From Candidatus Aenigmatarchaeota archaeon (GTDB lineage: Archaea; Aenigmatarchaeota; Aenigmatarchaeia; QMZP01; QMZT01): a DNA stretch of 64,000 nucleotides. The notes below the pieces were generated by a model that was not told the origin of the DNA, did no database searches, and saw only the letters and a list, made by a program, of their open reading frames with translations. The first letter of the stretch is position 1. Each line of letters starts with the position of its first letter. The stretch spans positions 13,592 to 77,591 of the forward strand of contig JBGPQP010000004.1 in assembly GCA_041489155.1 (NCBI GenBank), given 5' to 3'. The position numbers were made by a program, and so were the translations under genes. Positions 270 through 44,802 of the stretch are shown here, one piece after another.

Positions 270-2525
270 ATGGCTGTTTGCGAGGCGACGTATGACGAGG
301 AATCGAGGCGGCTGAAAGTCGACTGCCTGGGCTGCGTGTACGGCGCGTCGGTCGAGGACTACGACAACTGCATGGGCATGGTCATAGACAAGCTGCTATC
401 GAACAAGAACGTGGACTCCATCGTCCTCGCCAAAGAGAGGGAATACGAATATTCCGGCGAGCAGGTGAAGATGCTCGTAGAGATAGCGAACGTCATCGAA
501 AGCATAATCAGGGAAAGACTGATTTCTTACTCGAATCTCAAACCCGACACCTGCGGCAAATGCTACCCGAAGTTCCCTTCGAACATGCAGAACATAGCGA
601 TTAATCTCATAAGAAGGGACCCGGTAGGCGCTTACGTAGAACTTATCCGGGAGGGAAGGGAGCTTCTCGTGAGGATGGCGAAGAAAGACGCATGCCACCG
701 ATGCTACAGGCATTACAAGGAGGACATCGTGGATGTGCTCATGAAAAAGCTCGAGCCGACTAAAATGATACAGCTGGCGAAACCGAGGCTTTCAGGCTAC
801 CACGTGGGCAACCGCGAAATCTACCGCCAGGTTTTCACCCCCAGCGTCAGGCCGAACTTCATGCTCACGCGCTACATGATCGCGCCGCCGGAGAATGGGA
901 AGTCGGTGGACCGCTATAACGTGGGGGACATACAAGTCGAGATCTACAAGGTCCCGCACGATACCAATTATTTTTATCACGCCACTCCCCCGGAGTTCAA
1001 CCTCTCGGAGGAGAAATACGCGGTCATGGACGCGGCGAGAAGGTACATGGCGTCGCACAGGCCGAAAACCGCGGAGTTCGTGAAGTCGGAGAAAGTCAGG
1101 GAGATTTTCTACAACATCGGAAAGGACATGCTCCGCGAGGTCGCCGACAAGATGGGCATCTACCTGACGTCGAATGACATCGAGCAGATGGCCGCGATAC
1201 TTACAAGATACACGGCGGGCCTTGGCGTTCTCGAGGTTCTGCTGGCGGACGAGAGGATACAGGACATATACATAAACTCGCCCATCGAGAGCAAGCCCAT
1301 CCTCATTTTTCACCAGGACTACCAGGAATGCCAGACCAACCTCATTCCCACGAGAGAGGACGCGGAATCCTGGGCTACCCGCCTGAGGATACAGTCCGGG
1401 AGGCCGCTTGACGAGGCGAATCCCGTCCTCGACACGGACATCGGCGTGCCGGGGGGCAAGGCAAGGTTCGCGGTCATAACCAAAGGCCTGTCGCCGCTGG
1501 GTTTCGGCTTCGCGATAAGAAGGCACAGGGACAAGCCCTGGACGCTGCCCCTGTTCATAAAGAACGGCATGATAAGCCCGCTGGCAGCCGGCCTGATTTC
1601 ATTCCTTGTCGACGGCTCGGTTTCGCTGCTCGTCGCTGGAGGCAGGGGTTCAGGCAAAAGCAGCATGCTCGGTGCGATGATGCTCGAGCTGCTGCCCAAG
1701 GTAAGGATAGTGACGATAGAAGACACGCTCGAGCTCCCCGTCGACCAGCTGAGGGATCTGGGTTACAACATCGAATCGCTCAAGTCGAGGTCGGTTATAA
1801 CTAAAGTGGAATCTGAAATGCCCGCTGACGAGGCGCTTAGGACTGCGCTGCGTCTCGGCGACTCGGCGCTCATAATAGGCGAAATCCGTTCGAAAGAAGC
1901 GAGCGCGTTGTACGAGGCGATGAGAATCGGAGCGCTTTCTAACGTCGTCGCCGGGACGATTCACGGCGAGTCGCCATACGGCGTATACGACAGGGTCGTG
2001 AACGACCTTGGCGTTCCCCCGACGAGCTTCAAGGCGACTGACGTGATCCTAATATGCAAATCGCTCAGGTCAGCTGATGGCCTCCGCCGCTCCAGGAGGA
2101 TGACGGAAATCACGGAAGTGAGAAAGCACTGGGATACGAACCCGCAGAAGGAAGGGGGTTTTGTCGGCCTGATGGAATACAACGGCAAGGAGGACACGCT
2201 TAAGCCGACTGATACGTTCGTCAACGGCGAATCGGAAATTCTCAACAGGATCGCTTCCTACGTCAAGGAATGGTCAGGCAACTGGGAAACGGTCTGGGAG
2301 AACATAAAGCTCCGCGCCAGGATGAGGGAAAATCTCGTGAACATGGCTGACAAGCTCAGGATGCCAGAACTCATGGAGGCGGAATGGATTACGATGTCGA
2401 ACAACGAATACCACATCATCGCCGAGAAGCTGAAGGAGGATGTCGGGTCGGTCGACGCGAAAATCGCCTACGATGAATGGGAGAAGTGGCTCAGGCTGAA
2501 AATAAAGTCAGGAAGTAAAGATTGA
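270..2525 (+). CDS. Type II/IV secretion-family ATPase (archaeal FlaI/PilB/VirB11-like) with a long N-terminal region
   Basis: 751-aa ORF with an ATG start. Walker A 'GGRGSGKSSML' is followed by 'IVTIEDTLEL', 'ALRLGDSALIIGEIR' and 'GTIHGES', the usual secretion-ATPase boxes. Confidence 0.85.
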   Translation: MAVCEATYDEESRRLKVDCLGCVYGASVEDYDNCMGMVIDKLLSNKNVDSIVLAKEREYEYSGEQVKMLVEIANVIESIIRERLISYSNLKPDTCGKCYPKFPSNMQNIAINLIRRDPVGAYVELIREGRELLVRMAKKDACHRCYRHYKEDIVDVLMKKLEPTKMIQLAKPRLSGYHVGNREIYRQVFTPSVRPNFMLTRYMIAPPENGKSVDRYNVGDIQVEIYKVPHDTNYFYHATPPEFNLSEEKYAVMDAARRYMASHRPKTAEFVKSEKVREIFYNIGKDMLREVADKMGIYLTSNDIEQMAAILTRYTAGLGVLEVLLADERIQDIYINSPIESKPILIFHQDYQECQTNLIPTREDAESWATRLRIQSGRPLDEANPVLDTDIGVPGGKARFAVITKGLSPLGFGFAIRRHRDKPWTLPLFIKNGMISPLAAGLISFLVDGSVSLLVAGGRGSGKSSMLGAMMLELLPKVRIVTIEDTLELPVDQLRDLGYNIESLKSRSVITKVESEMPADEALRTALRLGDSALIIGEIRSKEASALYEAMRIGALSNVVAGTIHGESPYGVYDRVVNDLGVPPTSFKATDVILICKSLRSADGLRRSRRMTEITEVRKHWDTNPQKEGGFVGLMEYNGKEDTLKPTDTFVNGESEILNRIASYVKEWSGNWETVWENIKLRARMRENLVNMADKLRMPELMEAEWITMSNNEYHIIAEKLKEDVGSVDAKIAYDEWEKWLRLKIKSGSKD

Positions 2526-2770
2526 TTTTGCGCGGGCTTGTCGGCATACTGAAGGGAATAAGAATGGGCAGGAAATTAAGCGTGCGCTACCTTGTTACAA
2601 CAATCGTTGCATCAGCGCTGATTGGCGCAATCGCCGGCTTGTTCGTGGAAAATGACTTGAGATTCGCGATACTTGCAGGCTATGTTGGCGGTGACTTCAT
2701 AGAAAGCTTATACAAGGTGCGGTTCCGCGAGATATACAAGCCGTCAAACAGAAAGGTGAAAATACCATAG
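2522..2770 (+). CDS. Small membrane protein, hypothetical
   Basis: 82-aa ORF with a TTG start overlapping the ATPase stop. An alternative ATG at 2561 gives MGRKLSV.... It has one clear hydrophobic helix (LVTTIVASALIGAIAGLFV). No recognisable family. Confidence 0.35.
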   Translation: MILRGLVGILKGIRMGRKLSVRYLVTTIVASALIGAIAGLFVENDLRFAILAGYVGGDFIESLYKVRFREIYKPSNRKVKIP

Positions 2771-2778
2771 GTGAAACA

Positions 2779-5700
2779 ATGAAAGGATTCATGAAAATAA
2801 ATCTGGCCGCGTTTATTGCGTTAATGATGTTATTATCAATCATACTCTTTCCTAATGCAACCATGGCAACAATTTACTGCCCGGACTGCTCTAATACGTG
2901 TTGGAACCCATACTGGTTAACCAACTGTCCTGGGGGGTCAGCTGATAACTGCGGTGACTGTGGATGCACACAAACTTGTGACCAGGGGTGTGGTGCATCG
3001 TGCGATGATAACGGCGATTGCCCGAATTATTGTGCAGACGGTGACATATTGCAGGAGAACCGTGTATGTCAGTCAGGTTGCACATGCGACAGCGGCAGCT
3101 CATTTAATTGCAATAACTATAACTTTTACCTGTGTGGCAGCGGAAATGTCAGGTATCTTCGTAATTATTATTGTTCTGGTGGGAATTGCAACTCATACAA
3201 TGATGATTGGATAGATGACTGCGACGCAGTATGCGACGGCACCTGGATGAAGAAATGCAGCGGCGGCGATTGCGTCCTTGACTATGATTGCCTCGCCACC
3301 TGCACAGGCAAGCAGCGCTACCACGGCTGCTACGGCGGCTGCAACAGCCCCTATTGTGACACCGGCTACGGGAACCCGTGCGGAGCCGCATGCGACCAGA
3401 ACGACGTGCAGGAAGGGGGCGATCCGAATTGGTGCCAGGCCTGCTCAAACGACGCGAACTGCGCGTGGAACAACATAAATAACGGCTATCAATGCAGCTC
3501 CGCGGATTCGTGCTCCGGCAATTCGGTGTGCACACACTACGATTGCAGCAGCGGTGCGTGCAGCGCCCAGGATGGCTGCACCAACTGCGACATTTATGAT
3601 GGTTGGTATGGCGGCGGAGAAAATGGTTGCGGTGTCTATGATGACCCAACATCATATTACCGCGATTATTACTGCTCTAGCGGCTCGTGTACTTATTCTA
3701 ACACGAACTCTGCTGACTGCGACATTTATGATGGTTGGTATGGCGGCGGCAACACGGCTGGCTGCGGTGATGACCCAACATCATACCACAGGGATTATTA
3801 TGTAATTGCAAATACCGACTCATGTGACTACTGCAATGCCGACTCTGCTGATTGTGACGGTTCTGATGTCTGTTCTAATGTATGTTTAGGATCTTACATA
3901 TACAGTTACTTGGATTATTATGTGACTGCAAACACAGGCTCGTGCACATATGCATGGGGTTCATATATTGAAGACTGCGCGACAAAAGCGAGCGAGTGCA
4001 CGAGTGTTTCAAATTACAGGGACTACGTGGGCTGTTCGGGCGGTGCGTGCACTTATAATGATTATGATTCCGACTCGGCACAAGGTTATTGTGATGCGTG
4101 CAAGGGCGCTGGTTACTGGTACCTTGGAGGTGAAACTTCGCCAACCACGTGCTGCGAGGATTCTGGAGAATACAAAAGAACTTTTGTAGATTACGCAGGG
4201 AATTCATATGGTGTCCAGGACTGGGGCTCCAGCCAGGCAGCATGTTGCGATGCATCAACTGACCATATAAATTACAACGGCCAGTGTGTTACATCCGGCT
4301 CAGGCGGTTATGCAGTAGCAACAGGATATTCTGTTCATGACCAATATGCTTATCCTTACTACTATTCCGGTGATCAAGGATGGCTCGACCTGGACGGTCA
4401 TTCGTCCTGGCCAGCTGCATTCGGAGCAAATGTATGCGGCGGCAGCGGCTGGATATACATGTATGGCGATTCTACCGGAGAGAAATGCTCCACCGCAGGG
4501 GGCAGCGGCTGCTGGGACGCAGGACAAAACAACTATGGCTGCTGCGGCGATGATTCAGGAGAGAATTATCTTTACAGGTTGAGTTATTCGGACCAGGTTG
4601 GAGGGCTTACAGCAACTAGTACATCCGATTACGCATGCTGTGATGCTTCAACAGATTGCGTGTATAATGGAGCGTGTTATGCTCAAAGTACTTGGTATGA
4701 TTTAGATAGTAATGGTGTATATGATTCATACTGTTATGGCGTTAATGGCTGGTTAAATGCAGATAGACATACTTCATATTGTACAGCAAATCATTGGAAT
4801 ATTGGCGGAGATGCGGATTTAGAAGGTGATTATTATCAGGTCGGCGGAGGACGAACTGATTTTTGTGATATAGGTGCAGCCGGAACTCCAAGTACACAAT
4901 GCTGCTGCGGCGACGATACTGGGGAAAATTACAGGACATGCACCGATTCTTCAGCGAACGGCGACTGCGGAGCAGATACAACAGCGTGCTGCACTGCTAC
5001 AACAAAGTGCATTGACCACAACGGCGCATGCCAGTCGACTGGTTCATGTTATACTTTTGGTTCAGGTGGGTTGAAATCATATTGTAACTCCGGAACATGG
5101 GAAGACCCTGACGAAGCGAGTGGCTATTGCACAGCATCCGGATGCGGATACACATGGATGACAAACGTGCCCACTAGCGGAACACAATGCTGTGCTGATG
5201 ATTCAACATCAGATAATTCATATTATTATTCAGCTAATCCTACGACTGCAACATCGCTTTCCTGCGAGCGCTGCAATGCGGGCAGTTATGTTTCACCTGT
5301 AACTTATTATGGGAATGGTTATTACACGGGCTCACTGACCACTTCAACAACAACTAACTGCTATTATGGTGACATTACTTGCAGTGCCGCGAACGGCGCG
5401 AACGGAACCAATGCTAACATATATGGCAACGGCTGGACGACAGGTTCTGTAACGACGTCTACTTCGCTTGTATGCTACTACGGCGACATGGGTTGCAGCG
5501 ACGGATCACAGAGCAACGGCACTTCTGGAACGTACTACGGCAACGGATATTCTAGCGGCAGTGGGACTTCAAGGACATGCCATTATGGCGATATAACCTG
5601 CAGCGATGGCTCTGCCTCAAACGGGACATCGCAGAATATTTACGGCTGGGGCTACTATGAGGGAAGCCTGACGGCATCGACGAGCGTGAGCTGCAAAAGC

Positions 5701-8700
5701 GGCGCAGCTACATGCGCTGACGGCAGCGCGGCGAATGACAGCGCGACCACTCTTTATGGTAATGGTTACATGCCGGGAAGCGGGACGACGAGGACATGCT
5801 ACTACGGCGACATCACTTGCGCTTCGGGCAGCGAGGCGGACGGGACGAGCGCGACGGTCTATGGGTGGGGCTGGTACAGCGGAAGCCTCACGACCTCAGC
5901 GACGGTGACGTGCAGGAGACCTGCAGGCACGTGCTCCGACGGCAGCTCTGCGAACGGCTCTGCCAGCACGCTCTGCGGCAACGGTTATTTTTCGAGCTCA
6001 AGCTCTTCCTGTTCTTCCGCTGACCAGAACACGGCAACAAGCGGCTATTGTTATTATGGAGACATGGCATGCAGCGATGTATCGGAGGCGAATGGCGCTG
6101 TAAGCAGCCTGCTCCGTGGCAACGGTTACACGATAGGCACTCCTGCCACAGACGTGACAGGCACATGTTATTACGGCAACATTGCCTGCGGCGACGGCAG
6201 CAGCGGCAACGGAACGAACGCGACTGTTCACGGCAATGGTTACGAAAGCGTGGGCGCATGTTACTACGGCGACTGGGCATGCGGCGACGGGACTTATGCG
6301 AATGGCAGTTCCTGCGCCCTTGCCTGCGGAGGCTCGGGCAACGCGTGCTGCACCAGCCAGGGCATATACACGGACAGCGTCTCTTGTTCTGTTTCTGGTT
6401 GCGGCCAGACCAACCACGACAGGGACAGCGCGCAGAGCTATTGCACTGCTACGGCGTCCGGCTGCACCGCATACGACTGGAGCATCGGCGGCGAGATAAA
6501 TGCGACGGTCTGCTGCGGCGACGACACGGGCGAAAACAAGCGCCTGAGATTCTGCAGCTCATGGTGCGTTTCCAACGCCAGCGACGACGCGTGCTGCGGC
6601 TCATCGGACAAATGCGTTTACAACAGCGCCTGCTACGGCGCTGGCTCATGCTACTCGGATGACGCATACTGCGATGCGGGCGCATGGCACGACTCTGACG
6701 ACGGGCAAACGTACTGTGAGGCGTGCAGTGGAAGCGGCAGATGGAACGCGGGCGGGGAGGTCTCGCCGACCTTGTGCTGCGGCGACGAGGCAGGAGAGAA
6801 TTATGATTACAGGATCGCCGACGGAGGCATGGACAACAATTTCGCCACCAACTCGAGCGATGACGCGTGCTGCAGCGCTGCGAATGACTGCGTCGCTGGC
6901 AGCGCATGCTACAGCAGCGGGAGCACGGCGAACGACATCGACAGCGACGGGGACAACGACTACTGCAACGCAGGGATGTGGTATGACTGCAGCACGGCTG
7001 CGCAGTGCCCGTCGGGCTACAGCTGCTTCGTAGGCGACTGCGTGGACGTGATAGACCTCATGTATGTCATTCCCACGCCTGCCCACGGCTCAAAAACTCC
7101 CAATAGTTCTGTCACCATAAACCTCACGGCAAACGACACGGTAAGCATGAGCATCGACACGTGCACGCTCCAGTGGAACGGCGTCAACGAGACGATGACA
7201 AAGTCAGGCAGCGGGACGTATGCTAATTGTTATGCGACTAAAGCGGTTGCCGACGGCTCGAGCTACAGCTTCAGGGCTTATGTCAACGACAGCGCGGGCA
7301 ACCTGGAAATGGAAAACGAAAGGAACTTCAGCGTGAATACGGCGCCGTCGCTTCCGGGCGTTTATCTCAACGTTAGTTTCGCCAAGAGCGGTGACCATGT
7401 TCTTGTTGCGACGACGGGAGCGAATGACAGCAACGGCGACGAGTATTATCTCAGGTGCGGCAACACGACAGGCCTCTCGAACCTGTGCAATTCTTCCCAG
7501 GGAAGCGGGCAAAGAAACTGCTCCTTCGCCAGCGGATGGGACGATAACGTCCAGCACATTGTCTACTGCAGGCTTGACGACGGCTATGAATATTCAACCG
7601 AAGCGCAGGCCAACCTGACAGCGGACAACCTGCCTCCCACGCCCAATCCTGCGCAGATAGAAGCCGCAGCAATGGCTTCTACCTCCGCGACCGTCACGGC
7701 AGTAGCCGCGAGCGACGCGTCTGCTGGGCTGAATGCGCTTGCCTACCGTTTCAACGACTCCGGCACATGGAGCGAATGGCAGGCCGGCAGAACTTACATA
7801 AACTCTTCGCTGCAGCCCAACACTCTTTATTGTTTCAACGCGCAGTACAGGGATACGCTTAACAATACGGGTTCAGCCAGCAGCCAGGTGTGCAATTACA
7901 CCCTTGCAGACCAGCCGTCCGTCGCATCGGTCAGCTGCTCTTACAACGGCACGCATGCATGCCAGGCCAACTTCAGCATGGGTTCGAATCCATACGGAGT
8001 GGAATATTACATAGACGAGACTACCGGCAGCGCAGGCGGCAGCGACAAGAACTGGACCGCGTGGGCCGGCGAAACTTCTTACAACGACGTCGTGTCCCTG
8101 CCGCACACGTCATATTGTTACAGGATAGTTGCGAAGAACCAGAACGGGACATCGACTCCGTTTTCGTCTCAGGTATGCGACACGTCCTATAACAACGTGC
8201 CTTCTGTCACCAGGCCGGTTGTATATGACAGCACCATGGCAGAGAAAAGTCAAATAAAGGCCGGCAGGGACATGTACGTCAAGGTTAACGTCAGCGACGG
8301 CGACGGAGCGGATGACATAAGCTCGGTCAGAATAAAGATAACGGACAACAACGGCCAGACCAGGGTGAACAGCGCTGATATGGCAAGCATAGCATCAATA
8401 ACAAACGGCTACGTTTATCAGTACAGCTATCGCACGCCTTCCGACGGCGAGGGCACATGGACCATCGAAATCACCTGCGTCGACGACGGCAGCGCGCAGG
8501 TAACGAACTCGACCACATTTGCTATTCTCTCGCTAAGGCTGGGCATAAGGCTTGTGCTCAACGAAACCGCAGCAAAAATTTATGTCCCCGGAGAGGGGGA
8601 AAAGGCTTTTGCTGATTTAACGAATGCTTATTATCCGAGTCCTGAACATTACTACATCGCTTCTTACAAAAATGCGTCGCTTTACGGCCTTGTTTTCCAG

Positions 8701-9051
8701 GACCGCGACGCTTTAGGCTTGCTAATTAACAAGACAGCTGACACGTTCTCGGTGGGGCTCGACCTGAAATATCCGAACTCCGTCGTGTTCCTCGTCCATT
8801 CGAAAGGCGACTGGAGGACTCTCAACAGCAGGATCGGCCTTATAGAGAACGGGGCCTTCGCTGATTATTCAGAACCCACCTTCGCTTTCGGCCTGGGTGG
8901 CAAGCAAAAGATGAAAATACTGCTGCAGTACGAGAACGTGGACATTCTCGGCGGAAGGAGGGATGTCGGGAGGGGCGCGACTTCGCTTTCCATAAAGCAT
9001 GAGGGCCTTTTCGGGCAGAACATCGGCCTCAACATAACCAAGCCGCCGTAG
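2779..9051 (+). CDS. Giant (2,090 aa) secreted, extremely Cys-rich repeat protein with C-terminal FN3/Ig-like domains
   Basis: The ATG is preceded by 'ggtga'. N-terminal hydrophobic signal/anchor MKGFMKINLAAFIALMMLLSIILF. Hundreds of Cys residues, six CCGDxxGEN...ACCDxxxxC modules, about nine YYGDxxC ~35-aa repeats, two FN3-like segments (aa ~1615-1800) and many N-x-S/T sequons. No C-terminal TM helix. Confidence 0.85.
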   Translation: MKGFMKINLAAFIALMMLLSIILFPNATMATIYCPDCSNTCWNPYWLTNCPGGSADNCGDCGCTQTCDQGCGASCDDNGDCPNYCADGDILQENRVCQSGCTCDSGSSFNCNNYNFYLCGSGNVRYLRNYYCSGGNCNSYNDDWIDDCDAVCDGTWMKKCSGGDCVLDYDCLATCTGKQRYHGCYGGCNSPYCDTGYGNPCGAACDQNDVQEGGDPNWCQACSNDANCAWNNINNGYQCSSADSCSGNSVCTHYDCSSGACSAQDGCTNCDIYDGWYGGGENGCGVYDDPTSYYRDYYCSSGSCTYSNTNSADCDIYDGWYGGGNTAGCGDDPTSYHRDYYVIANTDSCDYCNADSADCDGSDVCSNVCLGSYIYSYLDYYVTANTGSCTYAWGSYIEDCATKASECTSVSNYRDYVGCSGGACTYNDYDSDSAQGYCDACKGAGYWYLGGETSPTTCCEDSGEYKRTFVDYAGNSYGVQDWGSSQAACCDASTDHINYNGQCVTSGSGGYAVATGYSVHDQYAYPYYYSGDQGWLDLDGHSSWPAAFGANVCGGSGWIYMYGDSTGEKCSTAGGSGCWDAGQNNYGCCGDDSGENYLYRLSYSDQVGGLTATSTSDYACCDASTDCVYNGACYAQSTWYDLDSNGVYDSYCYGVNGWLNADRHTSYCTANHWNIGGDADLEGDYYQVGGGRTDFCDIGAAGTPSTQCCCGDDTGENYRTCTDSSANGDCGADTTACCTATTKCIDHNGACQSTGSCYTFGSGGLKSYCNSGTWEDPDEASGYCTASGCGYTWMTNVPTSGTQCCADDSTSDNSYYYSANPTTATSLSCERCNAGSYVSPVTYYGNGYYTGSLTTSTTTNCYYGDITCSAANGANGTNANIYGNGWTTGSVTTSTSLVCYYGDMGCSDGSQSNGTSGTYYGNGYSSGSGTSRTCHYGDITCSDGSASNGTSQNIYGWGYYEGSLTASTSVSCKSGAATCADGSAANDSATTLYGNGYMPGSGTTRTCYYGDITCASGSEADGTSATVYGWGWYSGSLTTSATVTCRRPAGTCSDGSSANGSASTLCGNGYFSSSSSSCSSADQNTATSGYCYYGDMACSDVSEANGAVSSLLRGNGYTIGTPATDVTGTCYYGNIACGDGSSGNGTNATVHGNGYESVGACYYGDWACGDGTYANGSSCALACGGSGNACCTSQGIYTDSVSCSVSGCGQTNHDRDSAQSYCTATASGCTAYDWSIGGEINATVCCGDDTGENKRLRFCSSWCVSNASDDACCGSSDKCVYNSACYGAGSCYSDDAYCDAGAWHDSDDGQTYCEACSGSGRWNAGGEVSPTLCCGDEAGENYDYRIADGGMDNNFATNSSDDACCSAANDCVAGSACYSSGSTANDIDSDGDNDYCNAGMWYDCSTAAQCPSGYSCFVGDCVDVIDLMYVIPTPAHGSKTPNSSVTINLTANDTVSMSIDTCTLQWNGVNETMTKSGSGTYANCYATKAVADGSSYSFRAYVNDSAGNLEMENERNFSVNTAPSLPGVYLNVSFAKSGDHVLVATTGANDSNGDEYYLRCGNTTGLSNLCNSSQGSGQRNCSFASGWDDNVQHIVYCRLDDGYEYSTEAQANLTADNLPPTPNPAQIEAAAMASTSATVTAVAASDASAGLNALAYRFNDSGTWSEWQAGRTYINSSLQPNTLYCFNAQYRDTLNNTGSASSQVCNYTLADQPSVASVSCSYNGTHACQANFSMGSNPYGVEYYIDETTGSAGGSDKNWTAWAGETSYNDVVSLPHTSYCYRIVAKNQNGTSTPFSSQVCDTSYNNVPSVTRPVVYDSTMAEKSQIKAGRDMYVKVNVSDGDGADDISSVRIKITDNNGQTRVNSADMASIASITNGYVYQYSYRTPSDGEGTWTIEITCVDDGSAQVTNSTTFAILSLRLGIRLVLNETAAKIYVPGEGEKAFADLTNAYYPSPEHYYIASYKNASLYGLVFQDRDALGLLINKTADTFSVGLDLKYPNSVVFLVHSKGDWRTLNSRIGLIENGAFADYSEPTFAFGLGGKQKMKILLQYENVDILGGRRDVGRGATSLSIKHEGLFGQNIGLNITKPP

Positions 9052-9090: not shown

Positions 9091-11196
9091 ATGGCCAGTC
9101 TTTTCGGCAAAAAGAAGAAAGAGCCGCCAGAAACAACCACGACCGAAGGCTATATGCAGCGCTACCAGCAGCTTTCCTTCCCCGACGAGAGCCAGCCGGT
9201 TGTGACCTCGCGCGAGTTCAGGCTTTTCAAGAAAAAAGAAGACCAGCCGCTGATATGGTTCGAAAGGCTCGCCCGCATCGCCGGCAAAATAATTTCTGCA
9301 AACCCGCCGGACGAGAACACGAAAAAGGAGCTTGAAACCTCGATTGCCTTCACGAGCATCCGCGTCACGCCGAAAGACGTGATGGCGCTCGTTTACCTCA
9401 CCATGATTTCTTTCGTGATAGCAGGCATATTTGTCGTGGTCCTGGGAATCGTCCCTCTTATGGGCGTGCTGTTCATTTCAATGGTCGGGGTCGGCCTCGG
9501 CTATTACTTCCTGAAATACCCGCTCAACCTCATGAAGGCTTACAGGATCGAGGCGTCGTCGCAGGTCGTGCTGGCCGTGCTGTACATGGTCGTCTCGATG
9601 CGCGTCACCCCCAACCTGGAGCAGGCGCTGAGGTTCTCCGCTGCGAACGTATCGGGCCCGCTCGCATGGGACCTTAGAAAGCTGCTGTGGGACATAGAGA
9701 TGGGGGGCTATTACTCGGCATCCCAAGCTCTAACCGACTACATAGCGAAATGGAAGGCAGAGAACGAGGAGTTCGCTGAGGCCCTGAGGCTCGTGCGCGA
9801 CTCTCGCACGCATACGCCCGAAAAGGCGGAAATCATCCTTAACGAGGCGCTGGACGTCATACTCAACGGCACGAAAACGCGCATGAAGCACTACGCGCAG
9901 GACCTCACGCTTCCGGTAAGCATTATACACATGATGGGCATCGTTCTTCCGATCCTCGGCAGCATAATGGCTCCGATGGCGGCGGTCTTCCTTTCCGACA
10001 TCGCCAGGCCGGAATATTTCTTCATAGGCTACGACGTCGTCCTGCCGCTTTTCATAGTATGGTTCATAAACAGCGTGCTCAAGAAAAGGCCTACGACCTT
10101 CTCCCAAGTGGACACCTCGCTGCATCCCGAGCTGCCGCCGAAGGGGAGCTTTTTCATCAACATGGGGAAAAAGAAAGTCGCGATGCCCGTCCTGCCGTTT
10201 TCGCTCATCACAGCGTTGGTTTTCATCGTCCCGGCGGTCCTGTTTTTCATGAGCGACCCCAGAGTATTTTTCTCAGGCGAAGGCGTCCACGACATGTTCT
10301 CGATGATAATGTCGCTGATGGTTATACTGGGCATCGCCCTGGGACTGGCGACGCATTTCATCCTTTCGAACTACCAGAGGATGAAGATACAGACTGACGT
10401 GCTGAAGACGGAGAGTGAGTTCGAACTCGCGCTCTTCCAGCTCGGCAACAGGATTTCCGGCGGGACCCCGATAGAACTCGCCCTTGAGAAATGCGTTGAC
10501 GACGTTAAGGACCTCAGCATCGCCGGCCTGTTCACGATAACCCTGCGCAACATAAAGAACCTGGGCATGACCTTCAAGGAGGCGCTGCTCAACGAGAAGT
10601 GGGGGGCCATAAGGTTCTACCCGAGCAGCCTGATAAGGAACATAATGTACATGATCGTCGACATCGCAAGGAAAGGCGTCAAATACGCGGCGGAGGGCAT
10701 GATGACGGTTTCGAAATACCTGCGCAACATACGCGAGACGCAGGAGTACATACGCGACCTCCTGCAGGAATCGGTCTCGTCGATGAAGTTCCAGGCATAC
10801 CTATTGACTCCGATGGTCACGGGCCTGATAGTCTCCATGGCCCAGGTGATAATCAAGGTCCTTTCCATCCTCGGCAAGAGGCTCCAGGAGCTGAGCGCCG
10901 GCAGCAACCTGCCGATAAACATAAGCAGCGGCCTGTTCACCGGAGGCGGCGCGGGAACAAGCTCTGTCTCGCCTGAGATGTTCCAGATAATAATAGGCAT
11001 ATACCTCATCGAGGTGATAATCATCCTCGCCATGTTCATGACCAAGATTTCGCAGGGAGAGGACAAGGTTTACATGTGGTATTCAGCGGGCAAGATGCTG
11101 ATTGTCGCCGTGACCATGTACTTCCTAGTCGCCATCGGCGCATCGATGATGTTCGGCGGCCTGATAGAGCAGGCGGTAAGCAGCATCGCGGGATAG
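9091..11196 (+). CDS. Polytopic membrane protein, FlaJ/PilC/TadC-like type IV filament platform (two T2SS-F-like halves)
   Basis: 701 aa. Two soluble helical segments (aa ~170-260 and ~455-560) are each followed by clusters of TM helices, which matches the duplicated GspF/FlaJ architecture. It sits in the same orientation as the ATPase at 270. Confidence 0.7.
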   Translation: MASLFGKKKKEPPETTTTEGYMQRYQQLSFPDESQPVVTSREFRLFKKKEDQPLIWFERLARIAGKIISANPPDENTKKELETSIAFTSIRVTPKDVMALVYLTMISFVIAGIFVVVLGIVPLMGVLFISMVGVGLGYYFLKYPLNLMKAYRIEASSQVVLAVLYMVVSMRVTPNLEQALRFSAANVSGPLAWDLRKLLWDIEMGGYYSASQALTDYIAKWKAENEEFAEALRLVRDSRTHTPEKAEIILNEALDVILNGTKTRMKHYAQDLTLPVSIIHMMGIVLPILGSIMAPMAAVFLSDIARPEYFFIGYDVVLPLFIVWFINSVLKKRPTTFSQVDTSLHPELPPKGSFFINMGKKKVAMPVLPFSLITALVFIVPAVLFFMSDPRVFFSGEGVHDMFSMIMSLMVILGIALGLATHFILSNYQRMKIQTDVLKTESEFELALFQLGNRISGGTPIELALEKCVDDVKDLSIAGLFTITLRNIKNLGMTFKEALLNEKWGAIRFYPSSLIRNIMYMIVDIARKGVKYAAEGMMTVSKYLRNIRETQEYIRDLLQESVSSMKFQAYLLTPMVTGLIVSMAQVIIKVLSILGKRLQELSAGSNLPINISSGLFTGGGAGTSSVSPEMFQIIIGIYLIEVIIILAMFMTKISQGEDKVYMWYSAGKMLIVAVTMYFLVAIGASMMFGGLIEQAVSSIAG

Positions 11197-18956: not shown

Positions 18957-19820
18957 TTATTTGCTCATTCTTATCGGAATCCATACGCCGCTTTCCGTGT
19001 AGTGACCTAAACCGCCAAAATCGTAAGCCCTGATCCTGTTTTTGCCGGCTTGTTTCGCTTTGAGCATGGCATTGTCAGCATAATGGACAATCGCTCTTGC
19101 GGCTATTTCCTCGAAATCCTTTCCAAGATCAGGAGCCTTGACGCCTGCCGTCTGCTGCAAACGGATGAAGTCGTATACATTCTTAAGCATCACAAGCGCC
19201 TTGTTTTTATCTGAACCTGAACGAGAGCAGTATTCGTTTATTCTTGCCATCGTTCTTTCAGCGACGCCGTCACTGTCCAGGAAAGCAGCTATGGTGTCCC
19301 TTCCTCTCTCCCCATAAAGCATCGGGACGCCTACAACATCGCTTGATGTGACGCCGCCGCTTATGGTAAAAGCATAATCATCGGCTATCAACCTTCTTAT
19401 TTCATCTGCTGTCATGTAAGCGCCTCTCGTGCTCGTCGATCTCAAAAGGGCCAGGAATTCATCGGCCTTCGTGCTGTTCCTGCAGACAATGTCCGAGGTT
19501 CTTAGATTGTTTTTTAATGAGAGGGCCGTGTTCCTTATGGCTTCGTCGCCTTTCTGGTGACCTTCGTCGTCATTTATGGCTTTGAGGTTGTCGTTGTCAA
19601 CGAAAAGGATGGCATGCGGCTGGCCAGCCCTGGCCGAGGCTGAGAGCTCGATAGGCAGTATCCTGTCAAAAAACTTCCTGTTGAAAATGCCCGTAAGAGA
19701 ATCATCATACAGAACTGCCTGAAGGCAATCAATGAGATAAGCCGCCTTTTTGCCGCCAGTTTCCTTTATGTGCTCTTCCAGCGCATGCGCGGCTTCGTCT
19801 ATTTTACTATTATCAGGCAT
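18957..19820 (-). CDS. GGDEF-like nucleotide cyclase domain protein with degenerate signature (KADEF)
   Basis: 'DSLTGIFNRKFF', 'ILFVDNDNLKAINDDEGHQKGDEAI', 'SDIVCRNSTKADEFLALL' and 'YADNAMLKAKQAGKNRI' line up with the GGDEF consensus (LTGLxNRR / DiDxFKxiNDxxGHxxGD / RxGGDEF / ADxALYxAKxxGRN). There is an ~85-aa insertion before the last helix. Confidence 0.75.
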   Translation of the reverse strand: MPDNSKIDEAAHALEEHIKETGGKKAAYLIDCLQAVLYDDSLTGIFNRKFFDRILPIELSASARAGQPHAILFVDNDNLKAINDDEGHQKGDEAIRNTALSLKNNLRTSDIVCRNSTKADEFLALLRSTSTRGAYMTADEIRRLIADDYAFTISGGVTSSDVVGVPMLYGERGRDTIAAFLDSDGVAERTMARINEYCSRSGSDKNKALVMLKNVYDFIRLQQTAGVKAPDLGKDFEEIAARAIVHYADNAMLKAKQAGKNRIRAYDFGGLGHYTESGVWIPIRMSK

Positions 19821-24538: not shown

Positions 24539-25468
24539 AAATTTAAACATACAAATTCAACTATATATATGAGGGTAAAACTTTTAGATGGCAAACAAAG
24601 AGCATTAATAGAGCAAGTAAAAAATAAAAATAATTTTAATTTTAAAGAACTTTCGACATTTCTACGCGTCAATGGAGCAGCATTAAGAGAATGGTATTAT
24701 GAAAGATGTCTTTTACCTTACAATATTTTTAGAAAGTTAGATGAAGAAAAAAACTTCGAAAAATTTATAATGGAAATTAGAGAACAGAACTGGGGTCAAA
24801 GAGATGGGGGTAAAAAATCATATGGGAACACAAAGAAAATAAAAAAACCGCTTTTCGACGAAAGATTGGCAGAACTCGTGGGTATTTTATTAGGAGATGG
24901 CAACATCTATTCGTATAGAAATGTGAAAAACGGTAAAGTAATATCGACGCATAGTATAAGAATTTGTGGTGATTCCAGAAATGATCACGAGTATGTAACG
25001 GAACATGTTTCAAATTTGTTACAAAATCTTTTTGAAATAAAAACTCGTTTGTACAAAAGTAAAAAAAGAAACGCAGTTTATGTAATAGCTGATGGAATTG
25101 AACTAGTGAAATTTTTCAATTCATTTGGCTTGAAACCCGGAAATAAGATAAAAAACAATCTTACGATTCCAGAATGGATATGGCAAGATCCAGTATTTTT
25201 GAAATCTTGCATACGTGGTTTATTTGATACGGATGGTTCAATCTATGAATTAAAACCGCATTGGCCGGGTTTGATTCAAATATCGTTCAGAAATTATAAT
25301 AAACTCCTCCTGAAAGATGTAGAAAGAGCCTTGAAACAATTAGGTTTCATTACATCGAAAATACATGACAAAAAAATTTGCATAACGAAACAAAATGAAG
25401 TTGATAAATTTTTTAAGGAGATAAAACCTAATAATCCTAAACACGTTAAGAAATATGAAAAAATCAGA
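24539..25468 (+). mobile_element. AT-rich homing-endonuclease cassette between the 26-nt direct repeats
   Basis: Composition shifts visibly by eye. The cassette has its own TATA-like sequence (aaatttaaac...tatatata) and is bounded by duplicated tRNA 5' sequence. Confidence 0.55.
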
Positions 25469-25483
25469 AGCCCCGTGGTGTAG
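24569..25483 (+). CDS. LAGLIDADG homing endonuclease (double-motif)
   Basis: 'LAELVGILLGDGNIY' and 'CIRGLFDTDGSIY' are two LAGLIDADG motifs. The ORF is conspicuously AT-rich relative to its flanks. Its last five codons and stop (AGC CCC GTG GTG TAG) are the first nucleotides of tRNA-Gln. Confidence 0.85.
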   Translation: MRVKLLDGKQRALIEQVKNKNNFNFKELSTFLRVNGAALREWYYERCLLPYNIFRKLDEEKNFEKFIMEIREQNWGQRDGGKKSYGNTKKIKKPLFDERLAELVGILLGDGNIYSYRNVKNGKVISTHSIRICGDSRNDHEYVTEHVSNLLQNLFEIKTRLYKSKKRNAVYVIADGIELVKFFNSFGLKPGNKIKNNLTIPEWIWQDPVFLKSCIRGLFDTDGSIYELKPHWPGLIQISFRNYNKLLLKDVERALKQLGFITSKIHDKKICITKQNEVDKFFKEIKPNNPKHVKKYEKIRSPVV

Positions 25484-26230: not shown

Positions 26231-27433
26231 CTAAGCAAGCAAGGGTATGCCGAGTTCCATGTGGATGTTCCTCTCCGGAACCGGCAATGTGTGCGTGACT
26301 GCGCCGAGCGGACCCATTACGTATGGCGATTTGACGCCCGTAACAACAGTGATGACCTTCAGCCTGTTTTTGTAAGCCGGGTCTATCCTCGCGCCCCATA
26401 TCACCGGAGCGTCGGGATCCAGCTGCTTCGAGACGTACTCGCCTATCCTGCTTACCTCTTCGAGTTTGAGGTCGTAGCCGCCGGTTATGTGTATGAGCGC
26501 GCCTGTCCCGCCGTGGTAATCCACGTCAAGCAGCGGGTGCGACATCGCCCTTATTATCGCTTCTTCGGCTCGCTCTTTGCCGTCGGATTCGCCGAAGCCT
26601 ACGGTGGAGACACCACCGATTTGCATTATCGCCTTTACGTCGGCGTAGTCCAGATTGACGAGCGAAGGCTGCGATATCGTCTCGGTTATGCCCTTTATCA
26701 TGTTCGCAACCAAGTCGTCGGCGACATAGAACGCTTGTTTCAGCGGAAGGTTGCCTGCTATCTTCAAAAGCCTGTCGTTCTCTATCGCTATAACAGTGTC
26801 AGAAACCTGCCTCAATGCGTACAAACCGTCCTCCGCCTTGTTCATTCTAGCGCCCTCGACCTTGAAAGGCATGGTCACGTTCGCTATTACTATCGCACCC
26901 ATCTCCTTCGCTATCCTCGCGATCACAGGCGCCCCGCCTGTTCCCGTTCCTCCACCCATTCCGGCGACAAGGAACAGCATGTCTATGCCTTCCAGCATCT
27001 TCTTTATTTCCCTCTCGCTCTCTTCTGTCGCCTTTTTGCCTACTCCCGGATATCCTCCTGCACCAAGACCCCTCGTTACCTCCCTGCCGAGCAAAAGCTT
27101 TTCGTGCGCATTGGTCATGCCAAGGTGTTTCGCGTCCGTATTCATCGCCACGGTCTTCGCTCCCAGGATGCCTATGTCGGTCAGCCTGGATATCGTGTTG
27201 TTGCCGCCTCCGCCCACGCCTACGACCAGAATCTTCGCGCCCATCATGTCCAGGTCGAACTCCTCCTTTATCCTCTGGTAGCAGTCTGTTGTCGAGCCAC
27301 CTCCCTTGACCGGCTCAGCCTCTTGCTTCTTGGCCTCTGCCGGCTTGGCTTCCGTTACGGATGCCGTTTCTATCGCCGCCTCCATCGCCTTCACGGCGGT
27401 TTCGGCCGATTCCTGCGCTTCCGTTGCTTCCAT
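26231..27433 (-). CDS. ftsZ: Cell division protein FtsZ (paralog with acidic/Ala-rich N-terminal extension)
   Basis: 'VVGVGGGGNNTISRL', 'NTDAKHL', 'GMGGGTGTGGAPVIA' (tubulin signature) and 'NLDYADVKAIM'. Confidence 0.92.
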   Translation of the reverse strand: MEATEAQESAETAVKAMEAAIETASVTEAKPAEAKKQEAEPVKGGGSTTDCYQRIKEEFDLDMMGAKILVVGVGGGGNNTISRLTDIGILGAKTVAMNTDAKHLGMTNAHEKLLLGREVTRGLGAGGYPGVGKKATEESEREIKKMLEGIDMLFLVAGMGGGTGTGGAPVIARIAKEMGAIVIANVTMPFKVEGARMNKAEDGLYALRQVSDTVIAIENDRLLKIAGNLPLKQAFYVADDLVANMIKGITETISQPSLVNLDYADVKAIMQIGGVSTVGFGESDGKERAEEAIIRAMSHPLLDVDYHGGTGALIHITGGYDLKLEEVSRIGEYVSKQLDPDAPVIWGARIDPAYKNRLKVITVVTGVKSPYVMGPLGAVTHTLPVPERNIHMELGIPLLA

Positions 27434-42781: not shown

Positions 42782-42901
<120 letters not shown>

Positions 42902-43692: not shown

Positions 43693-44802
43693 ATGGGCGT
43701 CAGAAGCGTTGATATTAAGGATGAAATAAAAGAGGTCGTGAAGAGGAAACAGCACCCTGAGGTCGACGAGGAACTCAGGAAGATTCTTGAGTCCAAGAAG
43801 GCCGAGATCAAGGTCATAGGAGTCGGAGGCGCAGGAGGCAACACCATCTCGCGCATGACGCAGGTGGGCATAATCGGCGCCGAGACTATCGCGATGAACA
43901 CCGACGCCCAGGACCTGCTTTATACTGATGCTGACACCAAGGTCCTCATAGGCAGGGAACTTACCGGAGGCCTTGGAGCAGGCGCCGACCCGAAGGTCGG
44001 GACGGAAGCCGCGAAAGAGTCGAAAGAAGACATCAAGAAAGCGCTGGAAGGCGCCGACATGGTGTTCGTGACCTGCGGCCTTGGCGGCGGAACCGGGACC
44101 GGCGCAGCGCCGATAATCGCGGACATCGCGAAGAAAACCGGCGCGCTAACCGTGGGCGTTGTCACGCTTCCGTTCGGGATGGAAGGCAAGCAGAGGATGA
44201 GGAACGCGCAGGACGGCCTTGAAAATCTGCAGTCCATTGCCGACACCCTCATAATCATACCCAACGACAAGCTGCTTGAAATCGTCCCTGACGTATCGAT
44301 AACCACGGCGTTCAAAGTCGCTGATGAGATACTTGTAAACTCGGTCAAGGGCATAACGGAACTCGTCACCAAGCCCGGCCTTGTTAACCTCGACTTCGCG
44401 GACGTCCGCGCGGTGATGGGTGCAGGCGGCCTTGCCATGATAGGCATGGGCGAGAGCGACACGGAGAACCGCGCGCTTGAATCCGTCGAGAAGTCGCTGA
44501 ACAATCCGCTGCTTGACGTGAGCATAGAAGGCGCTTCTGGCGCCCTGATAAACGTCGCCGGCGGCGAGGACATAACCATAAAGGAATGCCAAGAAATCGT
44601 GGAGGCCGTCACGACCAAGCTCAACCCGGACGCGAAGATAATCTGGGGAGCGCAGATCGTTAAGGAGCTCGGCGACACCATAAGGGCGATGCTGATAGTG
44701 ACCGGAGTGAAATCCTCGCAGGTTTTCATGACCGAGAAGAAATTCACTTCAGCGAAGCAGAAAGAGATAGAAAGGGTTCTCGGGATAGACTTCGTGGAAT
44801 AA
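43693..44802 (+). CDS. ftsZ: Cell division protein FtsZ (second paralog)
   Basis: 'VIGVGGAGGNTISRM', 'NTDAQDL', 'GLGGGTGTGAAPIIA' and 'NLDFADVRAVM'. It lies upstream of secE-spt5, as in many archaea. Confidence 0.92.
   Translation: MGVRSVDIKDEIKEVVKRKQHPEVDEELRKILESKKAEIKVIGVGGAGGNTISRMTQVGIIGAETIAMNTDAQDLLYTDADTKVLIGRELTGGLGAGADPKVGTEAAKESKEDIKKALEGADMVFVTCGLGGGTGTGAAPIIADIAKKTGALTVGVVTLPFGMEGKQRMRNAQDGLENLQSIADTLIIIPNDKLLEIVPDVSITTAFKVADEILVNSVKGITELVTKPGLVNLDFADVRAVMGAGGLAMIGMGESDTENRALESVEKSLNNPLLDVSIEGASGALINVAGGEDITIKECQEIVEAVTTKLNPDAKIIWGAQIVKELGDTIRAMLIVTGVKSSQVFMTEKKFTSAKQKEIERVLGIDFVE

Follow-up and report, generated by a model that had tools for sequence, protein, structure and literature searches.

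The cysteine pattern that recurs in a giant secreted protein encoded in the window (the whole 64,000-nucleotide stretch of DNA analyzed here) defines a previously unannotated extracellular domain family, the CCGDD module, with a core of about 80-95 aa. The module consensus is C-x4-W-x-D-x-D-x5-C-x2-(C)...W-x-I-G-G-E-x5-CCGDDxxE...ACC-x4-DC-V-x4-CY; it combines eight core cysteines, including two vicinal CC pairs, with several invariant acidic residues. We slightly favor the view that the module serves as a disulfide-stapled, Ca2+-binding stalk or spacer in the giant surface proteins of DPANN archaea. These archaea rely on bodily contact with host cells, and their large surface proteins, of which the CCGDD module is a recurrent building block, are mostly annotated as hypothetical. 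With the module defined, hundreds of giant 'hypothetical' proteins could be split into domains, and the surface proteins of DPANN lineages would have a marker.

Module copies in the giant protein

The first-pass annotation, which was made from the sequence alone, placed six copies of the pattern between positions 4060 and 6920, and all three peptide strings that it quoted are present in a protein of 2090 aa. The repeats do exist and the extent was roughly right; however, a profile HMM resolved five complete modules and one N-terminal half copy, and these fall in two blocks (nt 4033-5244 and 6391-6963) separated by approximately 1.1 kb of another repeat (CYYGDxxC). The features of the gene are as follows.

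2779..9051, + strand: giant-protein gene, an ORF encoding the 2090-aa protein that carries the modules
3580..3813, + strand: another shared Cys-containing module (CDxYDGWYGGG...DDPTSYxRDYY), two copies, aa 268-345
4033..4323, + strand: copy 1, aa 419-515, HMM score 50.7 bits; a variant without the 'DC' cysteine (TDHINYNGQC)
4429..4719, + strand: copy 2, aa 551-647, 53.0 bits
4717..5070, + strand: copy 3, aa 647-764, 49.0 bits
5065..5244, + strand: half module, aa 763-822, 24.8 bits; N-terminal half through CCADD, closing the first array
5296..6333, + strand: about seven units of the repeat YGNGY...C[YH]YGDxxC.DGSxxNGT, aa 840-1185; not a CCGDD module, separates the two module arrays
6391..6654, + strand: copy 5, aa 1205-1292, 58.9 bits; optional loop pair (FCSSWC)
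6652..6963, + strand: copy 6, aa 1292-1395, 78.4 bits; modelled with AlphaFold2 over aa 1293-1383

Copy 1 has an odd number of cysteines (9), copy 2 is preceded by a duplicated, hairpin-like 'GWLDLD' stretch (aa 533-541), and copy 3 contains a 25-aa insertion past GGD, a CCC triplet, and an optional loop Cys pair (CTDSSANGDC).

The HMM used to score the copies was built exclusively from modules in the proteins of other organisms. The real copies scored 25-78 bits, whereas 200 composition-preserving shuffles and the reversed sequence scored <=0.8 bits, and composition-corrected BLASTP of copy against copy gave 35-47% identity with E-values down to 5e-16; the recurrence noticed in the first reading is therefore real. 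A BLAST search of the whole protein against itself returned the identity match alone and was replaced by a search of the modules against the protein. At the DNA level the copies were 60-87% alike, and since this low likeness is limited to a short motif, the duplications are old and have been kept by protein-level selection. The module regions are also covered by independent sediment-metagenome contigs with 0-1 differences, so the repeat is not an assembly artefact.

The only hydrophobic segment of the giant protein is N-terminal (aa 1-33) and represents a signal peptide or signal anchor. The cysteine content is 7-14% across aa 34-1430 and 7.4% overall, compared with <=1.7% elsewhere in the window, and the module regions are strongly acidic (D+E, 12-17%; K+R, 2.5-3.7%). 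From aa 1431 to aa 2090 the protein is Ig/fn3-like and contains many N-x-S/T sequons; aa 34-822 contain none against about 10 expected. No module was found in the other ORFs of the window, leaving the giant protein as the sole carrier there.

Distribution and conservation of the family

Building a profile and searching with it, as had been proposed, proved productive: an exhaustive search with alignment A2 detected 451 protein clusters at E<=1e-3, of which 232 were detected at E<=1e-10 (clusters are represented at 50% identity). Homologues were not recovered when alignments A1 and A3 of the module were used in word-indexed searches; given the 451 clusters from the exhaustive search, these empty results are taken as failures of tool sensitivity and not as a sign of absence. 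Related loci were sought with the A4 subset, whose eight sequences sample the CCGDDx[GS]EN subtype only. The family comes almost entirely from DPANN archaea and spans several phyla; the few bacterial copies are from Myxococcota, Gammaproteobacteria, and Patescibacteria. The first-pass annotation considered such dense extracellular cysteine unusual for archaeal surface proteins. The giant protein is indeed an outlier within the window, but the claim does not hold for the lineage, since 451 clusters, mostly from DPANN archaea, make the module a common building block there.

The usual setting of the modules is a tandem array in a giant secreted protein, and one protein of 6834 aa contains 21 stretches, the highest number observed. 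A hydrophobic segment is present at the N-terminus in 102 of the 140 complete family proteins, and the partner domains in relatives, namely subtilase (S8), beta-helix/NosD, LamG, Ig-like, and dockerin domains, are all of extracellular types. Gaps between modules are <=25 aa in 229 of 385 instances, N-terminal half modules stand at the end of an array in 33 of 36 cases, and N-x-S/T sequons are depleted in modules across the family (309 observed vs 459+-18 expected).

The conservation of cysteines, whose pairing the first reading had marked for checking, was assessed across 396 distinct modules, numbered here by the A2 profile. Near-invariant cysteines are C14, C34, C35, C62, C63, C69 (96%), and C75; an upstream cysteine is present in 83% of the modules, the full set of eight core cysteines in 311, and a C-x2-C motif in about half. 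The other near-invariant positions are D8 (100%), G36 (91%), D37 (97%), D38 (97%), E41 (96%), W23 (85%), G27 (86%), and position 28, where 85% of the modules have E or D.

Database searches and predicted fold

The statement that the module belongs to no known family was borne out by Pfam, NCBIfam, PDB, and Foldseek alike. Pfam gave no match to aa 34-1430 of the giant protein at E<=1, and none to five single modules at E<=10 except for one chance zinc-ribbon match. When 147 modules were scanned singly, 12 unrelated Pfam families were matched by one member each (best E, 0.018). The named candidates EGF, LDL-A, granulin, GCC2_GCC3, furin-like, VSP, and PF11617 do not fit the module, and the homologue P0003, which has five modules, carries no precomputed Pfam domain in a set that extends to PF27334. 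PF27334 itself is precomputed on the homologue P0021; since no other homologue that bears the module has it, it is unlikely to correspond to the CCGDD module. NCBIfam, including the TIGR models of Cys-rich repeats, gave no family assignment to the whole protein, to single modules, or to the 147 modules, apart from scattered single-member chance matches (best E, 0.0085), and a search of PDB by sequence gave no match for the module. A literature search for the module motif or for cysteine-rich DPANN surface proteins returned nothing relevant.

Structure prediction for a single module, likewise suggested at first reading, was informative. AlphaFold2 modelled copy 6 (aa 1293-1383) with a pLDDT of 92.2 and a pTM of 0.78 from an alignment of 147 sequences, compared with a pLDDT of only 58.8 from 39 sequences; the latter model was left out of the fold search. 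The climb from 59 to 92.2 with the deeper alignment indicates that the alignment holds a consistent fold signal. The predicted module is beta-rich; its elements are a hairpin at the N-terminus, a short helix, and two further hairpins, one long and one short. A Foldseek search with this model against PDB and BFVD returned no similar fold.

Proposed role of the module

The slightly favored stalk or spacer role is drawn purely from architecture. The protein would be exported in a Sec-dependent manner, after which each module would fold as a small beta-rich unit stabilized by four core disulfides and one or two optional ones, with Ca2+ probably held via the D-x-D, GGE, and GDDxxE residues. Head-to-tail modules would form a rigid, protease-resistant stalk, often capped by an extra N-terminal half module, that may space out and display the working parts of giant DPANN surface proteins, such as the Ig/fn3-like domains here and the subtilases, beta-helix/NosD, LamG, and dockerin domains in relatives. 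The likely aim of such display would be contact with host cells or substrates.

It is plausible that the module cysteines form disulfides, judging from the eight core cysteines, the co-varying optional pairs, and secretion. The core cysteines split 4 + 4 across the separable halves of the module. The two cysteines of the optional loop pair co-occur (phi, 0.62-0.73) and bracket the predicted hairpin loop between strands 47-51 and 64-71, and an optional helix cysteine tracks an extra upstream cysteine (odds ratio, 3.9; p, 6e-9). Some module copies nevertheless have an odd cysteine count, a point against the proposed explanation. Acidic residues and Gly make up most of the near-invariant non-Cys positions (D, E, GDD, and E), which makes Ca2+ binding by the module plausible; D8, E/D28, D37, D38, and E41 are conserved candidate ligands.

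A ligand site would account equally well for the strict conservation of W, GGE, and GDDxxE, and the module may itself be an adhesin that binds glycans or envelopes in a Ca2+-dependent manner through these residues, with tandem copies providing multivalent host attachment. The invariant non-Cys residues, one aromatic plus acidic residues, are suggestive in this respect, as such a set is typical, by analogy, of Ca2+-dependent sugar sites. The scarcity of N-x-S/T sequons in the modules would leave a binding face clear, the family is centered on episymbiotic DPANN lineages, and host binding has been proposed for giant DPANN surface proteins (PMC10266531). However, identical residues are invariant over several phyla and in as many as 21 stretches of one protein, so that a structural cation site fits better than a site that recognizes diverse host surfaces. 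Moreover, the modules occur with enzymes (S8 proteases) and beta-helix proteins, for which a spacer role is enough, and resemble no lectin family or fold in Pfam or Foldseek. We therefore regard an adhesin as somewhat unlikely. It is unlikely, too, that the module is a new fold of DPANN origin that acts as a Ca2+-dependent multivalent binder of host glycans or S-layers, or as an extracellular thiol/metal redox module, with the bacterial copies acquired horizontally; if this were true, the module arrays would be the physical interface of the DPANN-host symbiosis.

The cysteines might instead ligate a metal center (Fe-S, Zn, Cu, or the like), which would make the module an extracellular metal-thiolate domain for metal capture, redox chemistry, or electron transfer. 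The vicinal CC pairs and the C-x2-C motif in about half of the modules are compatible with such a site, and relatives have NosD-type domains as well as PF11617 (MopE, a putative metal-binding motif) in other parts of these proteins. The sediment habitat points in the same direction: the source organism is from sediment metagenomes and probably anoxic surroundings, where extracellular disulfides would be less expected, and disulfide-forming machinery was not found in the window (no Dsb/VKOR-type gene among the scanned ORFs). On the other hand, the optional cysteines come and go in twos beside a predicted hairpin loop, and this paired gain and loss is the signature of a disulfide staple rather than of a metal site with three or four ligands. 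The even core count of eight, with four in each half, and the absence of conserved His partners among the 396 modules also argue against metal ligation, as does, weakly, the confident prediction of the fold without a cofactor. We thus consider a metal-thiolate domain very doubtful. Finally, the idea that the region contains no domain and is either a Cys/Asp/Gly-rich stretch of low complexity or a product of repeat mis-assembly, which draws on its compositional bias (8-14% Cys) and the empty word-indexed searches, is refuted by the shuffle controls (<=0.8 bits vs 25-78 bits for the real copies), the 451 clusters from the exhaustive search, and the same sequence in independent metagenome contigs, agrees poorly with the confident AlphaFold2 model, and is given practically no credence here.

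Comparison with known extracellular modules

LDL-receptor class A and calcium-binding EGF-like modules are short secreted units that have little hydrophobic core and depend on several disulfides and a cation cage of acidic residues, and in tandem they serve as rigid spacers in large eukaryotic surface proteins. The proposed working principle of the CCGDD module would be the same, by analogy only. The CCGDD module is archaeal and has about 90 aa, eight core cysteines, and two vicinal CC pairs, whereas LDL-A and EGF-like modules have about 40 aa and six cysteines; neither the whole protein nor the 147 modules matched them in Pfam, and no fold match was found. Granulin-type modules are beta-hairpin ladders pinned by vicinal CC pairs, and on the AlphaFold2 secondary structure the CCGDD module resembles them in placing vicinal CC pairs in the beta-hairpins of a small secreted unit. 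However, the spacing and number of cysteines differ, the helix and invariant acidic motifs of the CCGDD module are not found in granulins, and neither Pfam nor Foldseek gave a granulin match.

PF11617 (Cu-binding_MopE) is similar in that it consists of short Cys/Asp-rich repeats in large secreted prokaryotic proteins, and it co-resides with the CCGDD module in P0017 and P0025-P0027. The two occupy different positions, with PF11617 at aa 638-667 and the module at aa 936-1007 in P0017, and at aa 297-324 and aa 894-978, respectively, in P0027; moreover, PF11617 is 30 aa long with another motif, and no CCGDD module scores against it. Disulfide-rich, calcium-stabilized extracellular chemistry is usually linked to eukaryotic extracellular matrices, and the CCGDD module, being small and modelled with confidence, would offer a way to ask whether such proteins are made by anaerobic ultra-small archaea.

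Gene neighborhood

The giant-protein gene is flanked by two genes in the same orientation.

270..2525, + strand: FlaI/PilB/TadA-type secretion ATPase (T2SSE), upstream neighbor
9091..11196, + strand: 701-aa polytopic membrane protein without a family match, downstream neighbor

The 701-aa protein could be a candidate platform protein; comparison with FlaJ/TadC and other families in Pfam and NCBIfam gave no assignment. Elsewhere in the family, a GILT/thioredoxin-like gene adjoins one CCGDD homologue (P0003), which counts in favor of the disulfide-stapled reading.

Giant DPANN surface proteins beside secretion ATPases have been described as host-interaction devices, among them the 'SPEARE'-type proteins of Nanohaloarchaeota, which are 8,880-9,409 aa long and contain a VirB4/TraG-like ATPase domain (PMC10266531). 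That paper describes no cysteine-rich module, and its lone mention of 'cysteine' concerns glutamate-cysteine ligase in a section on redox. The giant protein shares with the SPEARE type its large size, Sec-dependent export, acidity, Ig-like domains, an adjacent secretion-type ATPase gene, and a DPANN source. However, it is not of the SPEARE type, for which more than 5,000 aa, an internal VirB4/TraG-like ATPase domain, tandem Ig-like domains, and an adjacent VirB4-type ATPase gene would be expected, as it has 2090 aa and no ATPase domain, and its neighbor is of the T2SSE/FlaI type. The archaeal origin assumed at first reading agrees with the aIF5B-type factor, Rpb3, and diphthamide synthase encoded in the window, and the nearest relatives are Aenigmatarchaeota.

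A repeated cysteine-rich module in the giant protein

The window contains a single ORF of 2090 aa at 2779-9051 (+). The only hydrophobic segment of its product is N-terminal (aa 1-33, ending PNATMA/TIY), with no further membrane-spanning stretch; judged by this hydrophobicity pattern, the protein would fit Sec export or N-terminal anchoring. Cysteine content was 13.8% in aa 34-418, 8.9% in aa 419-822, 7.1% in aa 823-1204 and 11.0% in aa 1205-1395, falling to only 2.0% in the C-terminal 660 aa; the remaining sizeable ORFs of the window contained 0-1.7%. The C-terminal part gave weak Ig/fn3-type matches and was enriched in N-x-S/T sequons (26 versus 10.3±2.7 expected), and aa 34-822 had none (about 10 expected).

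All three repeat peptides quoted in the first-pass annotation were found in this protein, and composition-corrected module-against-protein BLASTP linked the copies at 35-47% identity (E values down to 5e-16). When scored with a profile derived solely from other organisms' modules, aa 419-515, 551-647, 647-764, 1205-1292 and 1292-1395 reached 49-78 bits. The match at aa 763-822 scored 24.8 bits and was confined to the N-terminal half of the profile; by this measure, the first-pass observation is confirmed, with the six copies originally proposed corrected to five full modules and one half copy. They form two arrays (nt 4033-5244 and 6391-6963) separated by a different repeat, and no other ORF of the window carries this CCGDD module. 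DNA identity among the copies was only 60-87% and limited to the CCGDDxGEN codons, indicating old duplicates kept by selection at the protein level. Independent metagenome contigs across nt 4634-7438 and 4009-6719 showed one difference or none, which excludes mis-assembly. Together with null scores of ≤0.8 bits for 200 versions of the Cys-rich region shuffled at constant composition and for the reversed protein, this agreement rules out an artefact.

Two further repeats were observed. A second conserved module, CDxYDGWYGGG...DDPTSYxRDYY, occurs twice (window 3580-3813, aa 268-345) and contains a perfect 34-nt DNA repeat (3584-3617 and 3716-3749); it matched no family, and its DGWYGGG motif was also present in 16 homologous giant proteins, some lacking the CCGDD module. 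The repeat in the gap between the CCGDD arrays, YGNGY...C[YH]YGDxxC.DGSxxNGT, has about seven units with a period of 31-84 aa (window 5296-6333, aa 840-1185), and its motif occurs seven times in the homologue P0071.

Module anatomy

Conservation was counted over 396 distinct full modules with an 81-position profile. Near-invariant positions were D8 (100%), C14, W23 (85%), G26/G27 and E or D at 28 (85%); in the middle, C34, C35, G36 (91%), D37 and D38 (97% each) and E41 (96%); and towards the C terminus, A61, C62, C63, D68 (71%), C69 (96%), V70, C75 and Y76. Extending the profiled stretch upstream revealed an eighth conserved Cys (83%), 4-5 residues ahead of the Trp in a YCxxGxW hairpin. The full set of eight core Cys was present in 311 modules. 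Additional Cys were paired: in two alternative variable-loop pairs the partners co-occurred (phi 0.62-0.73), and the optional second Cys of C-x2-C, present in approximately 50% of modules, accompanied an additional Cys located 5-13 residues before the first core one (odds ratio 3.9, p 6e-9). Sequons were depleted in modules family-wide (309 observed versus 459±18 expected).

Modules were usually contiguous, with gaps of ≤25 aa in 229 of 385 cases. N-terminal half modules carried four of the eight core Cys and were the last array element in 33 of 36 cases, being internal only once; the half copy in the window (aa 763-822, nt 5065-5244) follows the same rule. Their cysteine content and position suggest that the halves are separable 4 + 4 Cys sub-units and that an extra N-terminal half caps the array.

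Family size and distribution

A whole-protein search returned 27 large proteins, several named Aenigmarchaeota or Diapherotrites; of these, 21 matched a local profile of the module and differed considerably in architecture. An exhaustive HMMER search with a 39-module profile against 1.84 billion representative proteins matched 451 proteins at E≤1e-3, of which 232 reached E≤1e-10 and 52 reached E≤1e-30. Up to 21 stretches were matched in the largest, of 6834 aa. The nearest modules (75-76% identity) were from Aenigmatarchaeota MAGs. Sampled members were named 'hypothetical protein' at source, save one with an fn3-domain name.

A scan limited to the CCGDDx[GS]EN subtype, with each species represented by a single genome, gave 67 loci, 60 of them archaeal and mostly labelled Woesearchaeota, Aenigmatarchaeota, Altiarchaeota, Nanoarchaeota, Undinarchaeota, Iainarchaeum, Pacearchaeota or Parvarchaeota; the label Methanosarcinales applied to nine of all loci. 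The dense cysteine had been considered unusual for archaeal surface proteins, a view that fails given how common the module is in DPANN. The other seven loci were in bacterial MAGs (Myxococcota, Gamma- and Deltaproteobacteria, Patescibacteria, Saccharibacteria and one unclassified bacterium), which points to transfer across domains of life, or else to mis-binning. These bacterial loci are L027 (a Myxococcota MAG, 2.69-Mb contig), L049, L056, L061, L062, L064 and L066; the 3036-aa Myxococcota protein P0002 has six module stretches alongside ASH/HYDIN-type Ig domains.

Comparison with known families and gene neighbourhood

Neither Pfam nor NCBIfam had a model matching the Cys-rich part of the protein, a module taken singly or any member of a set of 147 modules each scanned separately, and PDB sequence-profile searches were empty, which bears out the earlier view that the module is not assignable to a known family. 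The five-module homologue P0003 has no precomputed Pfam domain whatever. The MopE-type metal-binding motif PF11617 co-occurs in some proteins at different positions and was rejected as the module. Full-text literature searches turned up no report on the motif, nor on Cys-rich surface domains from DPANN archaea.

Three genes in the same orientation flank the giant gene and as a group resemble a secretion or type-IV-pilus-like module:

270-2525 (+), FlaI/PilB/TadA-type ATPase (T2SSE), immediately upstream
2522-2770 (+), small membrane ORF of 82 aa with one hydrophobic segment
9091-11196 (+), 701-aa polytopic membrane protein, downstream, with neither a family nor a PDB match

The homologues P0003, P0004 and P0005 have no such neighbours. 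Directly beside P0003, a 517-aa gene (L070 3773-5326) with weak GILT and faint Thioredoxin_4 matches could encode an exported thiol-disulfide oxidoreductase; the scanned ORFs of the window contained no similar gene.

The closest counterparts described so far are giant surface proteins of Nanohaloarchaeota, which are Sec-exported, acidic and rich in Ig-like domains, adjoin secretion ATPases and have been proposed to act in host interaction (PMC10266531). The likeness lies in the general setting, as the giant gene of the window adjoins a T2SSE/FlaI-type ATPase; however, its product is much smaller and lacks an internal ATPase domain.

Proposed function

What was observed is an exported, acidic, small tandem domain with eight conserved Cys, in which Cys are gained or lost in pairs and the other invariants are mostly acidic or Gly, plus a few others (W23, A61, V70, Y76). 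The interpretation in the first-pass annotation is supported in part, its disulfide and Ca2+ ideas being plausible proposals. Four core disulfides and optional staples would hold the module, and D-x-D, GGE and GDDxxE may bind a structural cation, most likely Ca2+. Such a module would serve as a rigid, protease-resistant element of a stalk, keeping the functional domains of DPANN surface proteins apart and displaying them, perhaps working like the unrelated Ca2+-binding EGF/LDL-A modules. As a whole, this disulfide-stapled, putative Ca2+-binding stalk unit is the best explanation and slightly more likely than not. The main alternative, a module that acts as a Ca2+-dependent adhesin in its own right, is rather unlikely: with the same invariants across phyla and in up to 21 stretches of one protein, a structural site is favoured over recognition of diverse ligands. 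Thiolate metal binding in anoxic sediment is improbable, given the pair-wise Cys covariation and the 4 + 4 Cys split.

The module defines a new domain family, perhaps with a new fold, whose functional type is familiar. It does not amount to a novel type of biological system. It is of use for the annotation of giant 'hypothetical' proteins, which number in the hundreds, and lends itself to structural study.

Organism and other gene content

The window is of archaeal origin, with genes for an aIF5B-type factor, Rpb3/RpoA, diphthamide synthase and two paralogues of FtsZ, the FtsZ genes lying at 26231-27433 (-) and 43693-44802 (+), within 17 kb of each other. Its DNA was found in several sediment metagenomes, and the giant protein is also recorded on a 131-kb contig of assembly GCA_041478965.1. 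A 119-nt tRNA at 42782-42900 (+), matched by Rfam at 58 bits and unreported by ARAGORN, has a length that suggests an intron-containing archaeal tRNA. GGDEF diguanylate cyclases are not known to be common in archaea; a clear domain of this type (E 4.7e-27) was present in a 287-aa protein at 18957-19820 (-). The 1724-aa protein at 49036-54210 (-) oddly pairs beta-helix/NosD repeats with an N-terminal HTH_11, and GC content reaches its minimum for the window inside the gene (0.377 at 50-52 kb). A LAGLIDADG-type homing-endonuclease-like ORF (24569-25483, +) lies in another low-GC stretch (0.415 at 24-26 kb).
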